Shown here piece after piece: positions 8,506-29,837 of a stretch of 64,000 nt of DNA. The DNA comes from Candidatus Poribacteria bacterium (GTDB lineage: Bacteria > Poribacteria > WGA-4E > WGA-3G). Position numbers and translations under genes: made by a program. The stretch covers positions 1,088,001 to 1,152,000 of the forward strand of contig OZ240248.1 in NCBI GenBank assembly GCA_965198235.1. The letters are read 5' to 3'. The notes beneath the pieces are model-generated. The model saw only the letters and a list, made by a program, of their open reading frames with translations. It did not search any database and was not told where the DNA came from. Position 1 is the stretch's first letter. Each line of letters opens with the position of its first letter.

Positions 8506-9371
8506 TTACGCTATCTCCACAGAGGGACCACAAGCAGCCCTCAATATGTTTATCGCAGCGTTGACATCCCTATCGTGGTGAGAACCACATTCAGGACACG
8601 TCCACTGCCTATCCGAAAGTGAAACATTGTTATTGTGATGTCCGCAATCTGAGCAAGGTTTCGTCGTCGCAGTCCACTGTCCGACTTGAAAGAACTCACG
8701 ATTGTGTTTGAAACACTTGAAATCCAATATCTCAACAAACTGGTAAAAGGCGAGGTCAGAGACTTTCCGTCCCCAGAGCCGTTTCATCGCCTCAAGGTTC
8801 AACGTCTCGGTGGCGATGGTATCAAAAGGAAATTAAGGATTTGGAGATACCGGACTTCACCTTCCCAGTCGCGATGGTGATGATACAGGATATTGCGACG
8901 GACAAAGACGAACTTCTGTTTATCTGCGTCCCATTCCTTAAAGGACAGGCGAACCGTGCCTTTGGGAATCGGAGACACTTTTTCGTCTACGGGCTCCCTC
9001 CAAATCGTGTATCCCGTTTGAAACTTCGCAGAGCGGTATTTGCCACGTTTTTTGAACTTCGGGGGACCGACACGTCTGCCACGTCTACCGTTTTCAATCC
9101 AATCAAAGAACCGTTGGTAAGCGATATGGATACGGATAATCACTTGATCAAGCGTATCTCGCGGGATCCACGCCCAGTGTTGCTTCGTGCGTTGGAGCAA
9201 CTTCGTCAAGTGTGGTTGCAAACGATACCGACCAGCGTATTTGCCATAGATACGGTAGTATCGCTTCTCCAATGCTAAGAAATGGTTATGCACATCGCCA
9301 AGATCATCAAGCAGATTACCCAAGCGTATATTCTGTGGGTGATTGCGTATCTTTTCTTTATGGGTTCTCAT
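8506..9371 (-). pseudogene. tnpB: TnpB with internal deletion and frameshift
   Basis: N-terminal part contains RFF...GPPKFKKR; C-terminal part contains IATETLNL, TTKPCSDC..CPECGSHHDRDVNAA.NI. The RuvC-I region is absent and the frame breaks at about 8800-8845. Confidence 0.8.
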
Positions 9372-17691: not shown

Positions 17692-18306
17692 CTAACTTTG
17701 ACCCCCAAGTTTTGCCATATACAAAATGAATACCGTGTTGCCAACAGCGAGCACTGCGCCGACGACGGTTTGGAGAAGTGTGTGTCGTTTTCGGTAAACC
17801 CGCGCCCAAGCAATCAGCGGAGTCAGCAGAAATAGCCAACCGAATTGTGGATTGACGAGCATGACGAGAACGGTAACACATCCAGTAGCGACACTGCTGT
17901 GAAAGCTTATTTTCCAGATCGGGGTAATTGCAGAAAAAATAAGGCTATTTACAATGTAAGCGATGCCTGCCCAGACGATTTCCCGCGCCGCACCCAGCTG
18001 ATGCAGCAGGACAGTACCTACAACCATGCTGACAAGCGTGCAGCATAAAGGTAGGAGTCGTTCTTCCCTATTATGCAAGTGCAGATTGCTTACTTTAGCA
18101 TACCGGGCCATCACCGCAATTGAAAGTACTGGCAGCACGGTAACAAATAGGACAACAATTGCCAACCAGCGGAGTACGTTTTGGGGAGCCGCATGTTTTT
18201 GGATAACGCCAATAGCGGTTGCGATTGGGACCAAAAATGGGCTGAAAAGAACAGAGGTACCCCACGCGATGCGCGCCGGAATTGTCGATAAATCGCTACG
18301 CTCCAT
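17692..18306 (-). CDS. PAP2-like membrane protein
   Basis: KISFH and WARV..KRHT..Q motifs; about 6 TM helices. Confidence 0.7.
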   Translation of the reverse strand: MERSDLSTIPARIAWGTSVLFSPFLVPIATAIGVIQKHAAPQNVLRWLAIVVLFVTVLPVLSIAVMARYAKVSNLHLHNREERLLPLCCTLVSMVVGTVLLHQLGAAREIVWAGIAYIVNSLIFSAITPIWKISFHSSVATGCVTVLVMLVNPQFGWLFLLTPLIAWARVYRKRHTLLQTVVGAVLAVGNTVFILYMAKLGGQS

Positions 18307-18309
18307 CAA

Positions 18310-19320
18310 TTAATTTGACGTTTCCAAAGTTTTGAAGAAATCAACTAAGTCCGCACCGTGTGTGCTCGCGTTGACCCCTTTATCAATTTCAAGAATTTTT
18401 CCTGTTTTATCAATAATAACAGCGAACCGTTGAATCTTTCCATCTGGCGCATTCGTCGCACCAAAGAGGAGTGCAAGGTTGCGTCCGGTGTCTACCAAAA
18501 GCGGGAAATTCAACTGATTGTCTTCCGAAAATTTTTGGTGAGAATCGGCATCATTTGATGTAATCCCAAAAATCTGTGCATCGTATTTCGTAAAACTACT
18601 CGACTCATCACGGAGTGAGCAAACTTGAGCCGTTCAGCCACGCCCAAAATCGCGTGGGTAGAATGCTAATACGACGTTCTTTTCCTGATGCAATTCGCTT
18701 AATTGGTGCGTTTTACCGGTTCCATCGGTTGCAATAAAATCTGGAGCAGGTTGCCCAACCTCTATCTTTGGTAGGACTTCCTTGAGCAGTGCGGCGACAT
18801 CTTCGCCGTGCGTTTTGACATTGACATCTGTATCAATGGCACGGATGTATCCCGCTTTATCAATGATGAAAGTTGTCCGTTTTGAGGCGTTGAAGCTTTC
18901 AATGATACCGCTGTACTGATTGCTCACCTCAAATTCGGTGTCGGCTAAGAGTGAAAATCCGAATTTTTGTTCTGTTCTAAACCGCTTGTGCGATTCAACA
19001 TTATCAACACTGACTCCGAAAAGGACGCTTTCGGTTGCTTCTATCTCGCTCAAATTATCCCGGAGCGAGCAAAGTTCAGCCGTTCATCCACCTGTAAAAT
19101 CTTTTGGGTAGAAAGCGAGGACGATATTCTTTTTTCCTAAATAGTCGCTGAGGTTCCGCTCAACATCCTCTTCATCTTTCAATGTAAAATCGGGGGCGAC
19201 CATGCCCACCTTTAATGTGTTTGGCGTTGTCACTGCTTCCTCCCCTGAAGCTGCTGGAATCAAAATTGCTGTTATGAGGATAACAGCCCAGACGCTTGCA
19301 TTCAGCCGCGCTTGAAACAT
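18310..19320 (-). CDS. Exported tandem two-domain BCP/PrxQ peroxiredoxin, 336 aa, with two in-frame UGA codons (probable selenocysteines)
   Basis: ORFs 19084-19320, 18634-19053 and 18310-18513 share one frame; joined they read FYPKDFTGG-U-TAELCSLRD and FYPRDFGRG-U-TAQVCSLRD; N-terminal signal peptide. Confidence 0.88.
18599..18619 (-). promoter_or_regulatory. Candidate bacterial SECIS hairpin 2
   Basis: ctcactc-cgtgat-gagt(c)gag, starting 14 nt after the UGA. Confidence 0.55.
19045..19069 (-). promoter_or_regulatory. Candidate bacterial SECIS hairpin 1
   Basis: ctcgctc-cgggataattt-gagcgag, starting 14 nt after the UGA. Confidence 0.6.
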
Positions 19321-19359
19321 CGCGTTATGCCTCCGTTAAATAAATACGTTGTTAGTAAA

Positions 19360-19388
19360 ATTATACGCTATTTTGCTATAGGGGTCAA
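19360..19388 (-). promoter_or_regulatory. sigma70 promoter of the peroxiredoxin-PAP2 operon
   Basis: TTGACC-N17-TATAAT; GGAGG RBS at 19330-19334. Confidence 0.65.
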
Positions 19389-19492
19389 GTAAATTTGCAT
19401 TTAGCATGCCGCTAATTTGGGCTTCGGTGACCTTAGGCTGCCGTCTATGAAGCACAGGTTTCCCCACGTTTTAGCGTGTCGGTGCTATGACT

Positions 19493-20356
19493 TCAGTTAG
19501 AAATGATACCTTTTTCTTCAAGCCATACCTTCAGAGGCACGTCTGCATCTTTGGGTGAAAAATGCCCGTTTGCGTTGGTGCCGCCACCAAGTAACTGCTG
19601 TCGAATCGGATCGTTCCACTCAAACATCTCTGCGGGTATGGTCATGTTGTCTTTACTCCGTAGCCATCGGTACCCGTATCCATAGAAAAGCCCCTTTCGG
19701 GTGATGTCTGAATCGTTTTCGCTGCGGGCGTGCCATATCCGCCGGTCGAAGAAGACGGCATCACCGGGCTTGCAGCAGACTGGTGTTGCATCGTCCGGCA
19801 TCGAACCGTCTTCTGGCTTCTCAAGTTTATCCCAGAGATGGCTTCCCGGTATAACATAGAAATTACCGCGCCCTATTTCGGAGCAGTCGGATAGCCAGTA
19901 AACAACTTTTATGGAAAGACGGGGTCGCGGCGAACTTTCAATCTCAAAGTTGACGCGTCCACTATCCTGATGCCAGCCGAGTGGAGCAGATTTATCCCGA
20001 ACCTCATCGGGACGCGGCGGCGTGATGATGAAATGGCTGTGGTAGGAGTAGATATTCCATCCCAAGATTCCCCAGACCTTCGGGAACGTTTTATACCAAT
20101 CCAAAATATTCACGAATATCTGGTCTGTGCCGAGAAAATTCGGATAGAAGAAGTTGTTATGCTCAGTAAGTTGACTTTTGCTATATGGATCGTAACCAGC
20201 GTCAAGATGGTTCTGGTAGATGTGATCTACCTTTGTTTCAAGCCGTTCGACGAGATCTGACGAGAGCGCGTCTTCAACGGTAAGATACCCGTTTTCGTTC
20301 AGTTCGCGGAGTTGCTCGTCGGTAATCTGGTGTTGTAGATGACGTTCGTCAAGCAT
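19493..20356 (-). CDS. Phytanoyl-CoA dioxygenase (PhyH) family 2OG-Fe(II) oxygenase
   Basis: WHQD, VIPGSH and PGDAVFFD..IWH. Confidence 0.88.
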   Translation of the reverse strand: MLDERHLQHQITDEQLRELNENGYLTVEDALSSDLVERLETKVDHIYQNHLDAGYDPYSKSQLTEHNNFFYPNFLGTDQIFVNILDWYKTFPKVWGILGWNIYSYHSHFIITPPRPDEVRDKSAPLGWHQDSGRVNFEIESSPRPRLSIKVVYWLSDCSEIGRGNFYVIPGSHLWDKLEKPEDGSMPDDATPVCCKPGDAVFFDRRIWHARSENDSDITRKGLFYGYGYRWLRSKDNMTIPAEMFEWNDPIRQQLLGGGTNANGHFSPKDADVPLKVWLEEKGIISN

Positions 20357-20402
20357 AGGTTAAATCTCCAATTTGTGATATTTATCCCCGTACACGGATC
20401 GG

Positions 20403-21356
20403 TTAATCCGGTAGAGGACCCTCTATCTGGTCAACAAAATGAATAGAATGTATAACATCACGGAGGTCTGTAAGCGGAACTTGCCGGTTGCGGACGCAAT
20501 CGACGAAGTGGCGATGCATAGTCAGCACGCCTTCGTAATTGGGTGTATCGCGTTCGTCCACGCCGTCAACTTCCCAACCTCCCATAACGCTTCTGTTGTT
20601 GTCTTCATAAATTTCGATTTCTTCTGGGATTTTCATGTAACAACCGATACCGACACCGTGCAATTCGGAGCGCAGCACACGTCCACCTGACGCGCGACTC
20701 CCAAGAAGCACACCTGTGGCGTTGTTATCGAAACGGACAAAGGCGGTATAGAAATTACGTTGTTCCGCTCCAAATGTGTCGCGATGCGCCGTGACTTCCA
20801 CTGGCTCGCCGCCCGCCATATAGCGGAGTAGATCGACGACGTGGCAGACATCGTTCCAAAGCGTCGTCGTAAATTCCCGATTCTGTCCCAGCATTTGCTT
20901 GTTAAAGGTGGTAATAGCTAATGTAACGGGTCCCATTTCTGAGACGCGTCGCATGGCTTCGCGCGTAACAGCAGCAAATCTGCGCTGAAACCCTACCATG
21001 CAATAGACATCGTTGGCGACTGCTGCCTCAAGGAGTTGTTGCGTTTCATCGCTGTTCGCACCCGGTGGTTTTTCAATGAACAGATGCTTGCCGGCGTTGA
21101 GGCAATCCAGAGCGGGTTGCAAAATCCACTTCTCGTTCATTACACAATAAACGACGTCTAAGTCTAAGGTGTCCAGCATCTTCCGGTGATCTGTGAAGGT
21201 GTGCGGAAACTCATATTTCTGGGCAACCTGTGCGAGTTTCTCCTCATCCAGTTCACAGGCTCCAAGCATCTCAACATCATCTTCCAGCCGATTCACGCTT
21301 GGATAATGTGCGCCTTGACTGCGTCCCCCTGCACCGATAAATCCTGCTTTAAGCAT
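20403..21356 (-). CDS. Gfo/Idh/MocA family oxidoreductase
   Basis: GFIGAGG, HLFIEKP, VGFQRRF and H..D. Confidence 0.88.
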   Translation of the reverse strand: MLKAGFIGAGGRSQGAHYPSVNRLEDDVEMLGACELDEEKLAQVAQKYEFPHTFTDHRKMLDTLDLDVVYCVMNEKWILQPALDCLNAGKHLFIEKPPGANSDETQQLLEAAVANDVYCMVGFQRRFAAVTREAMRRVSEMGPVTLAITTFNKQMLGQNREFTTTLWNDVCHVVDLLRYMAGGEPVEVTAHRDTFGAEQRNFYTAFVRFDNNATGVLLGSRASGGRVLRSELHGVGIGCYMKIPEEIEIYEDNNRSVMGGWEVDGVDERDTPNYEGVLTMHRHFVDCVRNRQVPLTDLRDVIHSIHFVDQIEGPLPD

Positions 21357-21560
21357 TATGGCCTCTCCTTCGTCTCAATATTCACTAAATTTTGTGGGTC
21401 GGAGTATCCGTACTTTAGCACAAGGCTCAATCGATTGCAAGAAAATTTTTCAAACATTAGGTGACACTCGCGTATCACCGAAAAGTTTGATTTTCGCAAT
21501 CTTTTGTGGTATTCTTAAACTACATTAATCTTCGAGTCGTTAAGACATTTCTTTTTAATA

Positions 21561-21843
21561 ACGTGGGTTCGATGACAAAAATAGAAATAGATGTAGGTTG
21601 GGTTGAGCGGTAATGGACAATGATCCATCTCGTTTATGTGGATGCTGCTTTTCGATAACCTATCCGTTTAGATGGATACGGCGAAACCCAACAACTGAAC
21701 GCTGTCCGTGTGAGAATGCGTTGGGTTTCACTCGTCCTTGGGTGGTTTTTAGTTGCTTAATGAATCTTGAAAGTCATTTTTTGTGTGCGATTTTTGGGAG
21801 GACCCCGTTCAACCCAACCTACATGCTTAAGTTGAACTCACAC
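21561..21843. mobile_element. 283-bp IS982-like MITE containing a GTAG REP doublet (21593-21822)
   Basis: Ends acgtgggttcga / ttgaactcacac resemble the IS982 TIR at 28815; 7-bp direct repeat tttaata on both sides; internal gtaggttgggttgagcgg...ccgttcaacccaacctac. Confidence 0.7.
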
Positions 21844-21861
21844 TTTAATAAGGAGGGACTC

Positions 21862-22680
21862 ATGTCAGTTTTTGACGCAGAAGCCTTAGAATTTTGGGAA
21901 GAGAATGGTTACGTCGTTGTGCCGGAGGCGGTACCTCTTGGAAATTGCCAAGCCGCCGAACAAGCCGTCTGGGATTTTCTTGAAATGGACGGTGATAATT
22001 CGGACAGTTGGTACCCTGACCCACCGCGCCGGAGCATCATGGTGGAGATTTATCAACACCAAGCGTTATGGGACAATCGCCAATATCCTCGCATACATCA
22101 GGCATTTTCAGAGATTTGGGCAACTGAGAAGCTCTGGGTTAGTTTTGATCGGGCAAGTATGAACCCGCCTGAACGTCCGAATTATGAGTTCACCGGTCCC
22201 TATTTGCATTGGGATATGTCGTTGGACGATATGCCGGTGCGCCTAAAGGTGCAGGGTGTTTTGTATCTGGCGGATACCCCTGGGAATCAAGGCGCATTTA
22301 CCTGTATTCCGGGTTTCCATCGCAAGTTGGAAAAATGGTTGAAGGACTTACCTGATGACGCGAACCCGCGGGAAGTTGTGCGTGACTATCAAGTTGAGGC
22401 GGTTCCGGTCGCAGGGAAAGCCGGAGATCTCGTAATTTGGCATAGTGCCTTGCCACACGGCAGTAGCCCGAACTCCGCTGAGCGTCCTCGAATGGCGCAG
22501 TACATCACGATGTCCCCGGCACCAGACAACGGAAATCCTGAGGCTCGGATTACAGGGTGGCGCGAACGCCTAACGGGACTCGGAAAAGAGGGGAAAGAGA
22601 AGGAACATTACCACGGTAAAACAGCCGAATTGACTCTTTTAGGAGAAAAGCTCCTTGGACTTGAATCGTGGGGTGCGTAA
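21862..22680 (+). CDS. Phytanoyl-CoA dioxygenase (PhyH) family protein
   Basis: LHWD, CIPGFH and AGDLVIWH.ALPHG; AGGAGG RBS before ATG 21862. Confidence 0.88.
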   Translation: MSVFDAEALEFWEENGYVVVPEAVPLGNCQAAEQAVWDFLEMDGDNSDSWYPDPPRRSIMVEIYQHQALWDNRQYPRIHQAFSEIWATEKLWVSFDRASMNPPERPNYEFTGPYLHWDMSLDDMPVRLKVQGVLYLADTPGNQGAFTCIPGFHRKLEKWLKDLPDDANPREVVRDYQVEAVPVAGKAGDLVIWHSALPHGSSPNSAERPRMAQYITMSPAPDNGNPEARITGWRERLTGLGKEGKEKEHYHGKTAELTLLGEKLLGLESWGA

Positions 22681-22747: not shown

Positions 22748-24055
22748 ATGACGGAGGTTCCTCTTGTGACGGATTTGTTGGCAGCACGCGCACAGATGGC
22801 GATGTCCCTCGCGTTTCATATTATCTTTGCAGTCATCGGTATAGCGATGCCATTACTGATGGTAATTGCCGAGGGGTTATGGCTCAAAACGCGGGAGGAG
22901 GTTTACCTGACGCTTGCGAAGCGGTGGGCAAAAGGGACTGCGATTATGTTCGCTGTCGGAGCGGTCTCTGGCACCGTCTTGTCTTTTGAACTCGGTTTGT
23001 TGTGGCCCAATTTCATGGCTTATGCCGGTCCGATCATCGGCATGCCGTTTTCGTTGGAGGGATTTGCGTTCTTCCTTGAGGCGATCTTCTTGGGGCTTTA
23101 CCTCTACGGTTGGGACCGTATTCCAAAATATGCACACTGGTTTGCCGGTATGATGGTACTGATTGGCGGTACTTTATCGGGTATTTTCGTTGTCACTGCA
23201 AATGCCTGGATGAACACGCCTACCGGATTTTCGGTTGTTGATGGGGAAGTGACAAACGTCGATCCGATTGCGGCGATGTTGAATCCCTCGTCATTCAGCC
23301 AAGCACTTCACATGACCATCGCTGCCTTTCTGGCAGTCGGGTTTGCGGTGGCTGGCATCCACGCCTATTTTCTGCGACGTGATCCAAACAACCTTTTCCA
23401 TCGCCGAGCGTTTGCTATCGCCTTGAGTGTTGGCGGTCTATTCGCACTCCTCCAACCGATTTCCGGCGACATCAGTGCGAAGCGACTCGCGAAACACCAA
23501 CCTGTCAAACTCGCGGCGATGGAAGCACAGTGGGAGACAGAACGCGGCGCGCCTTTACGCATCGGTGGTATTCCTAACGAAAACACTGAAGAAACCCGAT
23601 ATGCACTTGAGATCCCGAAAGCACTGAGTTTTCTTGCATATTCCGACTTCAACGCTGAGATTATGGGACTCAAGGCGGTGCCACGGGAAAATCGTCCACC
23701 TGTGGCAATCGTGCATTTCGCATTTCAGATTATGGTTGCGTGTGGGATAGTTCTTATTACTGCTGGTGTTCTCGGTGGTTGGCTCGCCTGGAAACACAAA
23801 AGCCTACCAGACCAACGCTGGTATCTTCGGTTTGTTACGCTCTGCACACCGCTTGGGTTTATCGCGATCGAAGCAGGTTGGACGGTCACAGAGGTAGGGC
23901 GACAGCCGTGGATTATCTATAATTACATGCGCACGGCAGAGGCGGTGACTCCAATGCCGAACCTTGTTGTGCCTTTTATCTGTTTCACGGTCCTTTACAT
24001 TTTCCTCTCAATTATCATTGTTATCCTATTACGTCGTCAAATATTTTTAGACTAA
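22748..24055 (+). CDS. cydA: Cytochrome bd oxidase subunit I (short Q-loop, CioA-like)
   Basis: FHIIF, EGFAFFLE, QPVKLAAME and EVGRQPW. Confidence 0.95.
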   Translation: MTEVPLVTDLLAARAQMAMSLAFHIIFAVIGIAMPLLMVIAEGLWLKTREEVYLTLAKRWAKGTAIMFAVGAVSGTVLSFELGLLWPNFMAYAGPIIGMPFSLEGFAFFLEAIFLGLYLYGWDRIPKYAHWFAGMMVLIGGTLSGIFVVTANAWMNTPTGFSVVDGEVTNVDPIAAMLNPSSFSQALHMTIAAFLAVGFAVAGIHAYFLRRDPNNLFHRRAFAIALSVGGLFALLQPISGDISAKRLAKHQPVKLAAMEAQWETERGAPLRIGGIPNENTEETRYALEIPKALSFLAYSDFNAEIMGLKAVPRENRPPVAIVHFAFQIMVACGIVLITAGVLGGWLAWKHKSLPDQRWYLRFVTLCTPLGFIAIEAGWTVTEVGRQPWIIYNYMRTAEAVTPMPNLVVPFICFTVLYIFLSIIIVILLRRQIFLD

Positions 24056-24096
24056 CGCGAAGCGTTAAACAACGTGCGGACAGTTTATGGAGAGTT

Positions 24097-24330
24097 GGTT
24101 ATCGGCTATCGGTAGGACGGGTGGCTGTTGTGAACATTCTCACCTACTGCTTTGTCAGGTTTTTTCGGCTGATAGGTTTACTTGTTTGTAGTAGGGCAAT
24201 TCATTGCCCGTTTCTCTCACTGCGCGGCAGTGCGATAAATCGCACGACTACGAACCTACCCTTAACTTGAAGGTTGACAAGGCACTGCCACAAAAGACTA
24301 TTACTGATAGCCCATAGTTTCCAACAGCCA
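24097..24330. repeat. Composite repeat cluster between cydA and cydB
   Basis: ggttatcggctatcgg heptamers, tgctttgtca../..tgacaaggca inverted ends, and gtagtagggcaattcattgccc / gcgataaatcgcacgactac REP pair. Confidence 0.55.
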
Positions 24331-24335
24331 GTACG

Positions 24336-25388
24336 ATGTTAAGTCTTGAATTCTGCATCGCATGCGTGATGCTTATCTCCCTGATTATCTATATGTTGAC
24401 AGGTGGCGCGGATTTTGGTGGCGGCATCTGGGACCTATTTGCGACAGGTCCACGTGCGAAGGCGCAGCGCTCGCTTATCGCACAAGCTATCGCGCCGATC
24501 TGGGAAGCGAACCACGTCTGGTTGATTGTGATTGTTGTTCTGCTTTTCGTGGCGTTTCCTGTTGCATTCGCTGCGATTAGCACGGCTTTGCATATCCCGC
24601 TGACGTTAATGCTCGTCGGTATTGTGCTTCGCGGTACGGCGTTTGTATTTCGGACCTATGATGCCCAATCGGATGCAATACATCGCCGTTGGAGTCGGTT
24701 GTTCGCCGTTGCGAGTGTCATTACGCCTGTGATGTTAGGCATTACGTTGGGTGCGGTCGCGTCCGGCACGATTCGTGTTGACGTGGAAAGTGGACAGGTA
24801 GAAACAGATTTCATCTCAGCGTGGTTTGCGCCATTTCCGTTTACGATCGGTCTTTTCACCTTGACGTTGTCTGCCTTACTTGCGGCGGTGTATCTCACCC
24901 TTGAGACCGAAGACCCCGCATTGCGGGAGGATTTTCGGCGGCGCGCCCTTATCGCGGCAGTGAGTGTCGGTGCAATGGCAGGACTGAGTCTTCTCTTATC
25001 TGCTGAGGGGGCACCGGCGATCCGACATGGACTCGGTAGCACGCCTTGGTCGATTCCGTTTCACATCTTGACAGGTGCGGTGGCACTGTGGGCGATCTGG
25101 ACAATTTGGAAACGTCAATTTCGCCTTGCGCGTATCCTCGTTCCGATACAGGTTACGTTCATTGTTTTCGGTTGGGGATTGGCACAGTATCCGTCCCTTG
25201 TCACACCGGACTTAACCTTTTCAAATACAGCTGCACCGGATGCAGTGCTGCGTCCGATACTGATTGTGCTGGGTGTGGGTGGTATGCTCTTAGTGCCTGC
25301 ATTCTGGTATCTCTATACCGTGTTTAAAGGTACAGCTCGGAAGACGGAGGGAGTTACGTCCGAAGTTGATACTTATGATGACGATTAA
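24336..25388 (+). CDS. cydB: Cytochrome bd oxidase subunit II
   Basis: GADFGGG, PIWEANHVWL and LRGTAFVFR. Confidence 0.94.
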   Translation: MLSLEFCIACVMLISLIIYMLTGGADFGGGIWDLFATGPRAKAQRSLIAQAIAPIWEANHVWLIVIVVLLFVAFPVAFAAISTALHIPLTLMLVGIVLRGTAFVFRTYDAQSDAIHRRWSRLFAVASVITPVMLGITLGAVASGTIRVDVESGQVETDFISAWFAPFPFTIGLFTLTLSALLAAVYLTLETEDPALREDFRRRALIAAVSVGAMAGLSLLLSAEGAPAIRHGLGSTPWSIPFHILTGAVALWAIWTIWKRQFRLARILVPIQVTFIVFGWGLAQYPSLVTPDLTFSNTAAPDAVLRPILIVLGVGGMLLVPAFWYLYTVFKGTARKTEGVTSEVDTYDDD

Positions 25389-26960: not shown

Positions 26961-28054
26961 TAGGACTTACGCAGTATCCATTTTTATAGAAGGAGCCTTG
27001 AGTTGTTGTCGTAGATATTCAGAAAACATGCCATATTTGACCTGATAAAGCGTTTGACCGGTTTCATGTGCCCGACGCATGAGTCGAATCCAAACCAAAA
27101 ACGCACACCCAATGTGATTGCGAACAATCCGGGCTAAGCGACATTGACATTTTTCCAGGCCCGTTAGCTGTTTCGCTTCACGGTGAAATTGTTCAATCTT
27201 CCAACGCCAGGCGCAGGCGATTTCTGTGACCGACGCATCTGATTGACTCAAGTCGTTTGAGACGACATAATCCGTGCGCCGAGATGTAGACGCAACCCGG
27301 AAGACTTTCACTTTGTGATTTTTTGGAAACCCACGTATTTTGATACGTTTACCGGCTTGAAGTTCTGAAGTTGTCCACGTCAGACTGTCTATACGTTGAT
27401 ACGGCAGTGCCTCATGAGAATCGTCAACGCGTCGATTCGATTTCAAGGGACAATAATAGAGCTTCCCCAGGCTTTCAATATGAAGCATAACCCGTTTGGT
27501 AGCATACCAAGCATCCATCAACACCGTGCTGAAAGCAACGTCGCGCGAATCAACGAAGACCGAGAGCATCTCTTGAACATGATCCAACTTCGTTTTACCA
27601 TCACTTTGAATATCGTAAATGCGGTAATCAATCAACCAAAAACGGTCTAACACAGGATTCACATAGATACAAGTAACAATACCTATGCCATTTATCAGAC
27701 CTCTCGCACTGCCACTATATTGTTTTTTCGTGAGTGCGATCGCTTTGGCATGGCGTTTGTCAACAACCGTGTCATCAAAGATCACATATCCATCAGGGGT
27801 CTGCTCCAAGTGCGGTTTGACTGCTTTCCAAACGTCTCTGGGACGTAGACGATCGCCAGCGAGATAACGATTTATTTGGTCATGACTGAATCTTTCACAA
27901 TGCTCCGCAAAATGAGTCAGTGTATAGTTGATAGGCGTGCTGAGTAAATACTGACAGTAATCAAGGCGTGTCGGTTTTACCATTTTCATAGACCTCCTCG
28001 CTGACCATATTAGCCGGTTCAGAAGACTCTGTCAATGAGTTTGCGTAAGTCCTA
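26961..28054 (-). mobile_element. IS701-family insertion sequence
   Basis: Perfect TIR taggacttacgca / tgcgtaagtccta enclosing a transposase gene. Confidence 0.88.
26967..27989 (-). CDS. IS701-family DDE transposase, intact
   Basis: FDDTV.DK, LMDAWY and RWKIEQFHRE.KQLTG; stop codon lies inside the TIR. Confidence 0.88.
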   Translation of the reverse strand: MKMVKPTRLDYCQYLLSTPINYTLTHFAEHCERFSHDQINRYLAGDRLRPRDVWKAVKPHLEQTPDGYVIFDDTVVDKRHAKAIALTKKQYSGSARGLINGIGIVTCIYVNPVLDRFWLIDYRIYDIQSDGKTKLDHVQEMLSVFVDSRDVAFSTVLMDAWYATKRVMLHIESLGKLYYCPLKSNRRVDDSHEALPYQRIDSLTWTTSELQAGKRIKIRGFPKNHKVKVFRVASTSRRTDYVVSNDLSQSDASVTEIACAWRWKIEQFHREAKQLTGLEKCQCRLARIVRNHIGCAFLVWIRLMRRAHETGQTLYQVKYGMFSEYLRQQLKAPSIKMDTA

Positions 28055-28814: not shown

Positions 28815-29837
28815 ACGTGAGTTTGAAAAAAGTTTAGTCGTTAGAAAAGCACCGGCAAATCGCTGATCTCCTGAAGTTCATGGATGTTCAGCGAGGGTTT
28901 GTTCTCCAACAACTGATACGCGATCAAAGCAGAGAAGACATTGACTTGGAAGTTTTCAAAACTTCTATGCCGACTGTGTTCCAACTGCATCTGTGTTTTG
29001 AGTTCCCGGATCACCGATTCAATCAGCATCCGCTTTTTCAGCAGCACTTCATCGGACACCGATAAGTCCAGCGGTTCCATGTTCTTACGGACTTTGTAAA
29101 CCAAGTTTACACCTTGCTCACGGAGTTCTTCGCGAAGGTCCTTGGAGATATACCCTCTATCTGCGTAGAGACTCCCGTGAAGTCGCTCTGCGAACTTTCG
29201 CAGCGGTTTGCGATCATCTATATTCCCGGGGGTCAACGCAACATCTAAGAGGGCACCTGTGTGATTGATAACGAGGTGAAGTTTAAACCCGTAAAACCAC
29301 CCCATAGACGTTTTTGAGCATTCCGCAACATCTGCGAAGACGCGATGTGAGGAAATCCGCCTGTTATCGCAGACTCGCACCCGTGTCGAATCCACGAAGG
29401 ATACACCGCTACAGTCTCCGAGGGTCGTGGCAAGATAAAGTCTCAAAAGCGTCAAGACTTCTTTTTTCAACTGCACCAAGCGCGTATAACTCACCAGGTG
29501 TGGGAACTCGGAGCGCCAATAGACGCAGGCATGTTTGAGATAAAAATGCTTAAACGTCCGATAGTTGCTTTGCTGGAAAGCGATCAGGATCGTCATCACC
29601 TCGCTCGGATGGAGCTGTCTCGGGCGCCCGCGTGTTTCAAGGGGGGTGTCTCAGGGAGGCACTGTGTTGACACCCATTTCTCATAAGCAAGAAAAAAGTC
29701 GTCTATTTCGCAGAAAAGTGCTATAATATCCATTGGAGAACTCCTTTTGGTTGAAGATAAACAATCTGAATAACTTCATTATACTAAAAGGGTTCTCTCT
29801 ATTCAAAAAATTGTTCAATTATTTATCAAACTCACGT
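28815..29837 (-). mobile_element. IS982-family insertion sequence
   Basis: TIR acgtgagtttga / tcaaactcacgt; 8-bp target duplication tgatttta / ttatttta. Confidence 0.88.
28841..29733 (-). pseudogene. IS982 transposase with an N-terminal frameshift in a C-run
   Basis: MDIIALFCEIDDF (from 29733) is out of frame with SEVMTI..FVDST..WFYGFKLHL..ADRGY; shift at the G6 run near 29641-29646. Confidence 0.75.

Follow-up and report, generated by a model that had tools for sequence, protein, structure and literature searches.

A predicted tandem peroxiredoxin gene of Poribacteria with two in-frame UGA codons that very likely encode selenocysteine

We analysed a 64,000-nt stretch of the genome of a sponge-associated Candidatus Poribacteria bacterium (the window) and find that the minus strand between positions 18310 and 19320 probably carries one intact tandem BCP/PrxQ peroxiredoxin gene, in which both UGA codons very likely specify selenocysteine (Sec) and from which both an exported and a cytoplasmic form are predicted. 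Reading through the frame gives 337 codons, that is, 336 amino acids and a terminal TAA, and the only internal stops are two TGA codons, at 19084..19086 (codon 79, predicted Sec79) and at 18634..18636 (codon 229, predicted Sec229), as a preliminary description of this DNA had reported. The first TGA, in the context FYPKDFTGG-U-TAELC, is aligned with the peroxidatic Cys of homologues; the second, in the context FYPRDFGRG-U-TAQVC, occupies the same motif position, and both are conserved. Translation with table 11 splits the frame into a 78-aa ORF and a 139-aa ORF, while the third piece of the three-ORF split that had been described is absent among the listed ORFs of at least 70 aa. Judged from its sequence, the window gene is one intact gene and not a set of fragments.

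Both halves of the predicted protein belong to the BCP/PrxQ type. Domain 1 (18769..19215, minus strand) and domain 2 (18313..18768, minus strand) are 39% identical to each other, and the two AhpC-TSA stretches match PF00578 with an E value of 1e-67. The best NCBIfam model of each half is BCP (PRK09437), which scores 175.8 bits on the whole protein and 99 and 82 bits on the individual domains, the latter two under the cut-off of 140; the PrxU model NF040737 reaches 104.4 bits, below its curated cut-off of 270. Domain 1 carries the PxxxT/SxxC(U) motif as P72-x3-T76-x2-U79, together with C84 and R148, whereas domain 2 departs from it with Gly226 in place of Thr (P222-x3-G226-x2-U229, with C234 and R298). 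All 109 domains have the catalytic Arg (R148 and R298 here); a pattern found it in 104 and inspection by eye in the other 5. An AlphaFold2 model computed on a 24-sequence alignment has a pLDDT of 90.6 and a pTM of 0.89, and the top Foldseek matches are BCP/AhpE chains of one domain each (TM-score 0.81–0.90), the fold of domain 1 matching BCP chains. Homologues carry Cys at the site aligned with TGA, and this alignment and the domain models bear out the earlier proposal that each TGA falls at the peroxidatic Cys of a BCP/PrxQ domain; the homologue comparison suggested at the time returned Cys in homologues and TGA in relatives at both sites.

The arrangement is conserved across the order. Of 150 genomes sampled across the phylum, 139 belong to the same order, and 136 of these match the query at E ≤ 1e-30; none of the 11 genomes outside the order does so, meaning that the gene was not found there with this query rather than that it is absent. 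The tandem form with two TGAs occurs in 36 of 40 relatives; three others, all of genus g3, have a single domain with one TGA, and one genome (81% complete) has none. We read 58 loci, 51 tandem and 7 with a single motif. Both TGAs are kept in 51/51 tandem loci, which answers the question of conservation in relatives that the preliminary description had raised, and TGA stands at the motif in 77/77 domains examined. Because the position within the motif is the same at both sites in all 51 tandem loci, TGA placement is not a matter of chance. Besides both TGAs, the tandem copy L059 contains a premature TAA, and another locus (L069) has an N-terminal frameshift before domain 1. Single-domain genes were observed in genus g3 (L060–L062, L067 and L068; two copies in genome G068), where the gene is of the domain-2 type and has no signal peptide, and in L064 (g13), which consists of domain 1 alone with a signal peptide. 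In a tree of 23 of the 58 loci and 12 Cys-type proteins, from which L059 was omitted and in which long branches make the outgroup placement unsure, the two domains resolve into separate supported clades, which also take in the single-domain genes; the tandem therefore predates the four families.

Searches further afield were narrower in scope. A metagenome pattern that demanded Thr in domain 2, and so excluded the form found in the window gene's own family (f1), returned 57 loci, of which 13 are tandem two-TGA genes and 44 are not tandem (a few of these by chance). The 13 tandem genes are 49–72% identical per domain to the window protein and have motifs like those of families f2–f4; within this narrow, Thr-requiring pattern, none of the tandem two-Sec genes came from a clearly different lineage. 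A GTDB search for related loci used W/C patterns, which are blind to TGA forms, and gave 0/80 outside loci with TGA; its apparent tandem matches were rejected as separate genes or as a peroxiredoxin fused to a different redoxin domain. Single-domain Sec-BCP genes occur in many metagenomes. At three further metagenome loci (L171, L196 and L215) a single Sec-BCP domain lies within longer frames of 320–497 codons, and these are possibly other Sec-BCP fusions.

Each UGA is followed by a SECIS-like hairpin. Hairpin 1 (19040..19073, minus strand; −11.5 kcal/mol) has an apical loop that begins with G, 24 nt after the UGA, and hairpin 2 (18596..18622, minus strand; −9.1 kcal/mol) has G and then U at loop positions 2–3, 21 nt after the UGA. 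Both conform to the consensus model in the accessible text of PMC13188914 (a loop 16–37 nt downstream of the UGA with G within its first two positions, and a folding energy of −7.5 kcal/mol or lower). Synonymous shuffles are as stable in 2.1% of cases for hairpin 1 and 5.2% for hairpin 2, so that the stabilities are modestly unusual (p about 0.02 and 0.05). Codon usage across 77 domains points in the same direction: Leu at +7 is encoded by CTC in 76/76 and Arg at +8 by CGG or CGT only, whereas Leu at −11 uses all six codons. An almost identical nucleotide motif follows the TGA of selD, in another reading frame, and two other TGA-containing redoxins in the genome have a related hairpin. In a covariation test on 56 distinct sequences, which are related and hence not independent, the covariation score exceeded 500/500 shuffles and all slid controls, and the percentage of paired positions also beat the shuffles; double-sided changes were not above shuffles (105/500 and 33/500), and the region is conserved also as protein (SLRDE), which confounds the covariation signal. 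The domain-1 hairpins of genus g1 have a shifted register. A short SECIS regular expression picked 86 of 185,747 TGAs, including that of domain 2 and those of two other redoxins, and missed domain 1 and selD. A de novo selenoproteome scan by motif and hairpin passed 227 of 1328 candidates, mostly noise, and we claim no selenoproteome size from it.

The genome holds the machinery for Sec insertion, the presence of which the preliminary description had proposed to check: selA, selB, selD and tRNA-Sec were all found. The tRNA-Sec scores 78 bits against a cut-off of 47; selB (G000:C1 3673008-3675162, minus strand) lies directly upstream of it on the same strand, and selD has its own in-frame TGA in a CxxU context. 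The set selA, selB, selC and selD that marks a selenoprotein-producing bacterium is thus complete. From machinery, hairpins and conservation together, Sec at both sites is very likely.

Two other readings of the TGA codons draw on the state of public databases. The 78-aa and 139-aa fragments are deposited there as separate proteins, in a cluster of 302 members, as one would expect of a pseudogene or of three small genes with TGA as true stops. Such readings are highly improbable: both TGAs are fixed at the catalytic codon throughout the 51 tandem loci, the frame is otherwise open in 50 of these, the codon constraint over the SECIS and the Sec machinery of the genome point to decoding of the UGAs, and neither fragment alone has an intact active site. 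Nor are the TGAs likely to be assembly errors, because a contig from a public RNA run spans 18177-19723 with 0 differences to the window, the run possibly not being independent of the window's source. The best-matching public runs are sponge metatranscriptomes; we rejected their contigs as proof of transcription, neighbouring genes and most intergenic DNA being covered equally evenly. The second reading, in which the organism translates TGA as Trp (code 4) or Gly, could appeal to the 17 close full-length database matches (P0002–P0018), where 15/15 copies with a printed motif have W at both sites. It is scarcely credible, since TGA terminates 488 of 2293 long ORFs in the genome and is therefore not reassigned in this organism, the sole tRNA with a TCA anticodon at default stringency is tRNA-Sec, and Trp would wreck the active site. 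A normal tRNA-Trp is present, and the W-bearing copies lie mostly on contigs of 1–2 kb; they are consistent with misassignment of the genetic code by a gene caller. Database clusters of the gene's fragments and of the window's RuvB have members labelled Candidatus Poribacteria.

The region upstream of the coding frame and the first part of the frame itself contain signals for two translation starts. A predicted sigma-70-like promoter (TTGACC-17-TATAAT; 19360..19388, minus strand) has 11/12 consensus matches and is the best of 5 sites, with 3.2 expected in shuffles. The first start is preceded by the Shine-Dalgarno (SD) sequence GGAGG at 19330..19334 (minus strand; −9.5 kcal/mol in a duplex with the 3′ end of the genome's own 16S rRNA) and opens a predicted Sec/SPI signal peptide of residues 1–26 (19243..19320, minus strand), for which a heuristic places cleavage after A-S-G. 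The hydrophobic stretch at residues ~6–21 reaches a Kyte-Doolittle 10-residue maximum of 3.3; by a hydropathy rule, 49 of 57 loci have a signal-like extension, and A-x-A-like ends occur in relatives. A further GGAGG lies at 19239..19243 (minus strand; −11.1 kcal/mol), 5 nt before an in-frame GTG at codon 30 (19231..19233, minus strand), a likely second start that would give a 307-aa form without the signal peptide. Because cleavage is predicted 3–4 residues ahead of this internal start, the exported and cytoplasmic products would be nearly identical. The protein had been described as exported: the hydrophobic N-terminus is real and the heuristic calls a signal peptide, but the conserved second start predicts a cytoplasmic form as well.

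Conservation of the second start is best read at its fixed position. In all 49 colinear loci codon 30 is a start codon, GTG in 31 and ATG in 18, amid neighbouring columns with 5–11 different residues; GGAG stands at −10..−7 of the internal start in 41 of the 49. Within the genus codon 30 is GTG in 24/24, whereas the other 10 invariant Val columns use 2–4 codons; of 46 invariant four-fold columns, only 3, that of codon 30 among them, use a single codon. An ATG or GTG with an SD of ≤ −5 kcal/mol is found at the second-start region of 56/57 loci versus 18% of 293 in-domain ATG/GTG codons, a figure that picks the best start per window and is not like for like with its background, so that the fixed-position 49/49 is the fair count, and kin share ancestry. 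Of 11 additional metagenome copies whose N-terminus is intact, 10 have the second start too. The six loci of g2 and g3 have no signal peptide upstream and ATG is their remaining start, directly preceded by a stop codon in two of them; where a signal peptide exists, the first start usually has a good SD as well. With crude ORF and signal rules, an SD and start behind signal peptides are not enriched genome-wide (10/276 signal-like versus 19/579 cytoplasmic-like ORFs), and the dual start would therefore be specific to this gene. On these patterns we consider dual initiation at this gene rather likely.

Alternatively, the two-Sec tandem peroxiredoxin would be made from the first start only and exported, the internal SD and ATG/GTG being a relic or reflecting a protein-level preference for acidic and then hydrophobic residues after the cleavage site. 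Acidic residues are common after signal cleavage sites, and this account fits both the missing genome-wide enrichment and the other 13 AhpC-TSA-family ORFs listed, which are without a clear SD and start just behind the signal. We nevertheless hold it to be somewhat unlikely, because several observations speak against it: across proteins that are 50–60% identical the codon swaps between ATG and GTG alone, never to GTT, GTC or GTA or to Leu or Ile codons; the Glu three codons upstream is written GAG in 43 of 49 loci and GAA in 2, although the genes favour GAA by 580:315; the G preceding the Glu codon is kept across five different amino acids; and lineages that lack the signal peptide retain this very start.

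The two domains differ in which active-site residues they conserve. Domain 1 has the Thr of PxxxTxxU in 51/51 tandem loci, and its Cys at +5 is present in 19/51, all in the window gene's genus, and replaced elsewhere by R, N, Q, E, K or S. In domain 2 the +5 Cys is found in 49/51. The UxxxxC motif ascribed earlier to both domains thus holds widely for domain 2 but for domain 1 only in this genus. Likewise, the replacement of Thr by Gly in domain 2 is true at residue 226 and confined to family f1 (37/37 loci), the 14 loci of the other three families all keeping Thr. Two intact loci, L042 and L070, have no Cys at all in the mature protein. The accessible text of PMC3322552 describes the Thr of PxxxTxxC as absolutely conserved in PrxQ proteins, and for this reason domain 2 may plausibly be a weaker peroxidase. 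Domain 2 would still be under redox selection, because Sec, SECIS and Arg are retained, and domain 1, always with Thr, is likely the stronger peroxidase.

Such a pattern could reflect a division of labour, in which domain 1 acts as the peroxidase, domain 2 as a selenol/thiol relay (Sec229–Cys234) that reduces domain 1, and a thioredoxin-like partner reduces domain 2. The complementary conservation (Thr in 51/51 and Cys in 19/51 for domain 1; Cys in 49/51 and Thr lost in 37/51 for domain 2) is in line with this idea, as are the separate supported clades of the two domains, which are older than the families of the order, and the high pTM, which suggests a fixed packing of the domains in the model. 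The idea remains tentative and on balance doubtful, given that L042 and L070 are intact without any Cys in the mature protein, that single-domain relatives exist (L064 with domain 1 only, g3 with the domain-2 type) and that domain 2 is fully canonical in 14 loci. More doubtful still is the combined proposal of a two-Sec peroxidase that serves envelope and cytoplasm via two conserved starts, with domain 1 reducing peroxide and domain 2, where Thr is lost, working as an internal electron relay; if true, it would describe a self-contained module of selenium peroxidase and reductant, kept across an order of sponge symbionts and free-living kin.

For the two-Sec tandem peroxiredoxin itself, machinery, hairpins and conservation suggest that Sec79 and Sec229 would be inserted by SelB bound to the hairpin that follows the respective UGA. 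By analogy with PrxQ chemistry, each selenolate would attack a hydroperoxide, aided by the conserved Pro and Arg; where a +5 Cys is available (Cys234 and, in this genus, also Cys84), it would resolve the oxidised Sec. Re-reduction would fall to a thioredoxin-fold partner, in the envelope likely a TlpA/ResA-type protein fed by DsbD and in the cytoplasm thioredoxin; as candidates the genome offers a DsbD-family protein, one domain of which contains CxxC, and several thioredoxin-like proteins that have both a CxxC and a hydrophobic N-terminus. The first start would supply the exported protein and the start just behind the signal peptide the cytoplasmic one.

Beyond this gene, the genome contains three more AhpC-TSA-family ORFs with in-frame TGA, at G000:C1 1596039 (+), 2532661 (+) and about 3191400 (−); two have UxxC with a clear short hairpin and one has UxxS with a weak hairpin. 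In total, TGA lies inside 5 of 15 PF00578 matches in the genome, two of the 15 being the window gene's own domains, and relatives have many similar one-TGA matches of the PF00578 type, suggesting a selenoprotein-rich lineage. The noisy scan also returned plausible Sec candidates at G000:C1 1567770 (+), 2453253 (+), 2526850 (−) and 1767219 (+); they comprise a small protein with CxxU and UxxC contexts that look like those of a reductase, of a heavy-metal-binding domain and of an unknown family. Three 200-aa paralogues (P0019–P0021) have the same style of N-terminus without the peroxidatic Cys/Sec motif. In the window, a gene for a 205-aa membrane protein (17692-18309, minus strand) starts right after the peroxiredoxin stop and resembles PAP2 only weakly (E 1e-4, under the cut-off); this gene adjoins in 36/36 family-f1 loci and in 0/20 others within the short flanks available. 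Upstream of the peroxiredoxin gene, 19493-22680 holds two PhyH-family genes and a Gfo/Idh/MocA oxidoreductase. Elsewhere in the window, the ORFs at 8506-9371, 26967-27989 and 28841-29599 resemble transposase genes, and those at 22748-25388 resemble genes for cytochrome bd oxidase subunits.

Sec-containing peroxiredoxins are known from bacteria, as had been noted for this gene at the outset: the accessible text of PMC9312934 and PMC13188914 catalogues TxxU proteins (COG1225/Bcp, PF00578) with one Sec, with an experimental prototype from Eubacterium acidaminophilum. The window protein shares with them a (predicted) Sec at the peroxidatic position of PxxxTxxU and the PF00578 fold. It differs from the one-Sec form catalogued there in its two domains, each with a predicted Sec and a SECIS-like hairpin, in the PxxxGxxU motif of domain 2, and in its predicted signal peptide and likely second start. 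Its best matches in sequence and fold, Sulfolobus Bcp1 (3drn), M. tuberculosis AhpE and BcpB, are single-domain proteins of about 150–160 residues, and no tandem chain is among the matches listed. Periplasmic PrxQ has a precedent in Caulobacter crescentus PprX, reduced via ScsB (DsbD class) and TlpA (PMC3322552, accessible text). Like PprX, the window protein is a BCP/PrxQ with a signal sequence, in a genome with a DsbD-family gene and exported-looking CxxC proteins; PprX, however, is single-domain and Cys-based, and the accessible text mentions no cytoplasmic form.

More than one Sec per polypeptide is likewise known from bacterial double selenoproteins, namely MduS, MbdU and the HUGP/GUXX-star fusion, and from Prx-like UxxC/UxxU proteins with 1–2 Sec (PMC13188914, Table 1); these belong to different families, and the Table 1 rows covered here contain no tandem true peroxiredoxin with two peroxidatic Sec. 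The accessible text of PMC1976440 reports one Prx selenoprotein and a rhodanese with UxU. For the second start, Salmonella OmpX and PagC offer a parallel, in which an internal in-frame start yields a form without the Sec signal peptide that nearly equals the mature form (PMC11005335; review PMC13515050; accessible text of both). Those proteins are outer-membrane beta-barrels, whereas the window protein is a redox enzyme predicted to be soluble, with a possible role in either compartment, and its second start is conserved order-wide. A similar architecture is that of a 375-aa Cys-type tandem from a metagenome (P0022), which likewise begins with a signal-like segment followed by two AhpC-TSA domains, each with a peroxidatic Cys. 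It is only 32% identical, and in the tree neither of its long-branched domains joins those of Poribacteria; it is possibly an independent duplication. Our literature search, which covered neither supplementary tables nor most subscription journals, found no description of this tandem two-Sec protein. Single-Sec peroxiredoxins, periplasmic PrxQ and double selenoproteins are thus each known, while the doubled two-Sec form appears to be undescribed; the likely second start behind the signal peptide and the opposite conservation of Thr and Cys in the two domains would also be new.

A tandem peroxiredoxin with two Sec would extend the bacterial selenoprotein catalogue, in which peroxiredoxins have one, and its recognition puts right a gene that stands split or mistranslated in public collections. 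It offers a natural construct for studying how ribosomes decode two distant UGA/SECIS units in one frame, and for asking (i) whether Sec makes the peroxiredoxin Thr dispensable and (ii) whether one gene can serve both compartments. With other Sec-type redoxins in the same genome, the finding indicates that an order of Poribacteria invests selenium in peroxide defence.
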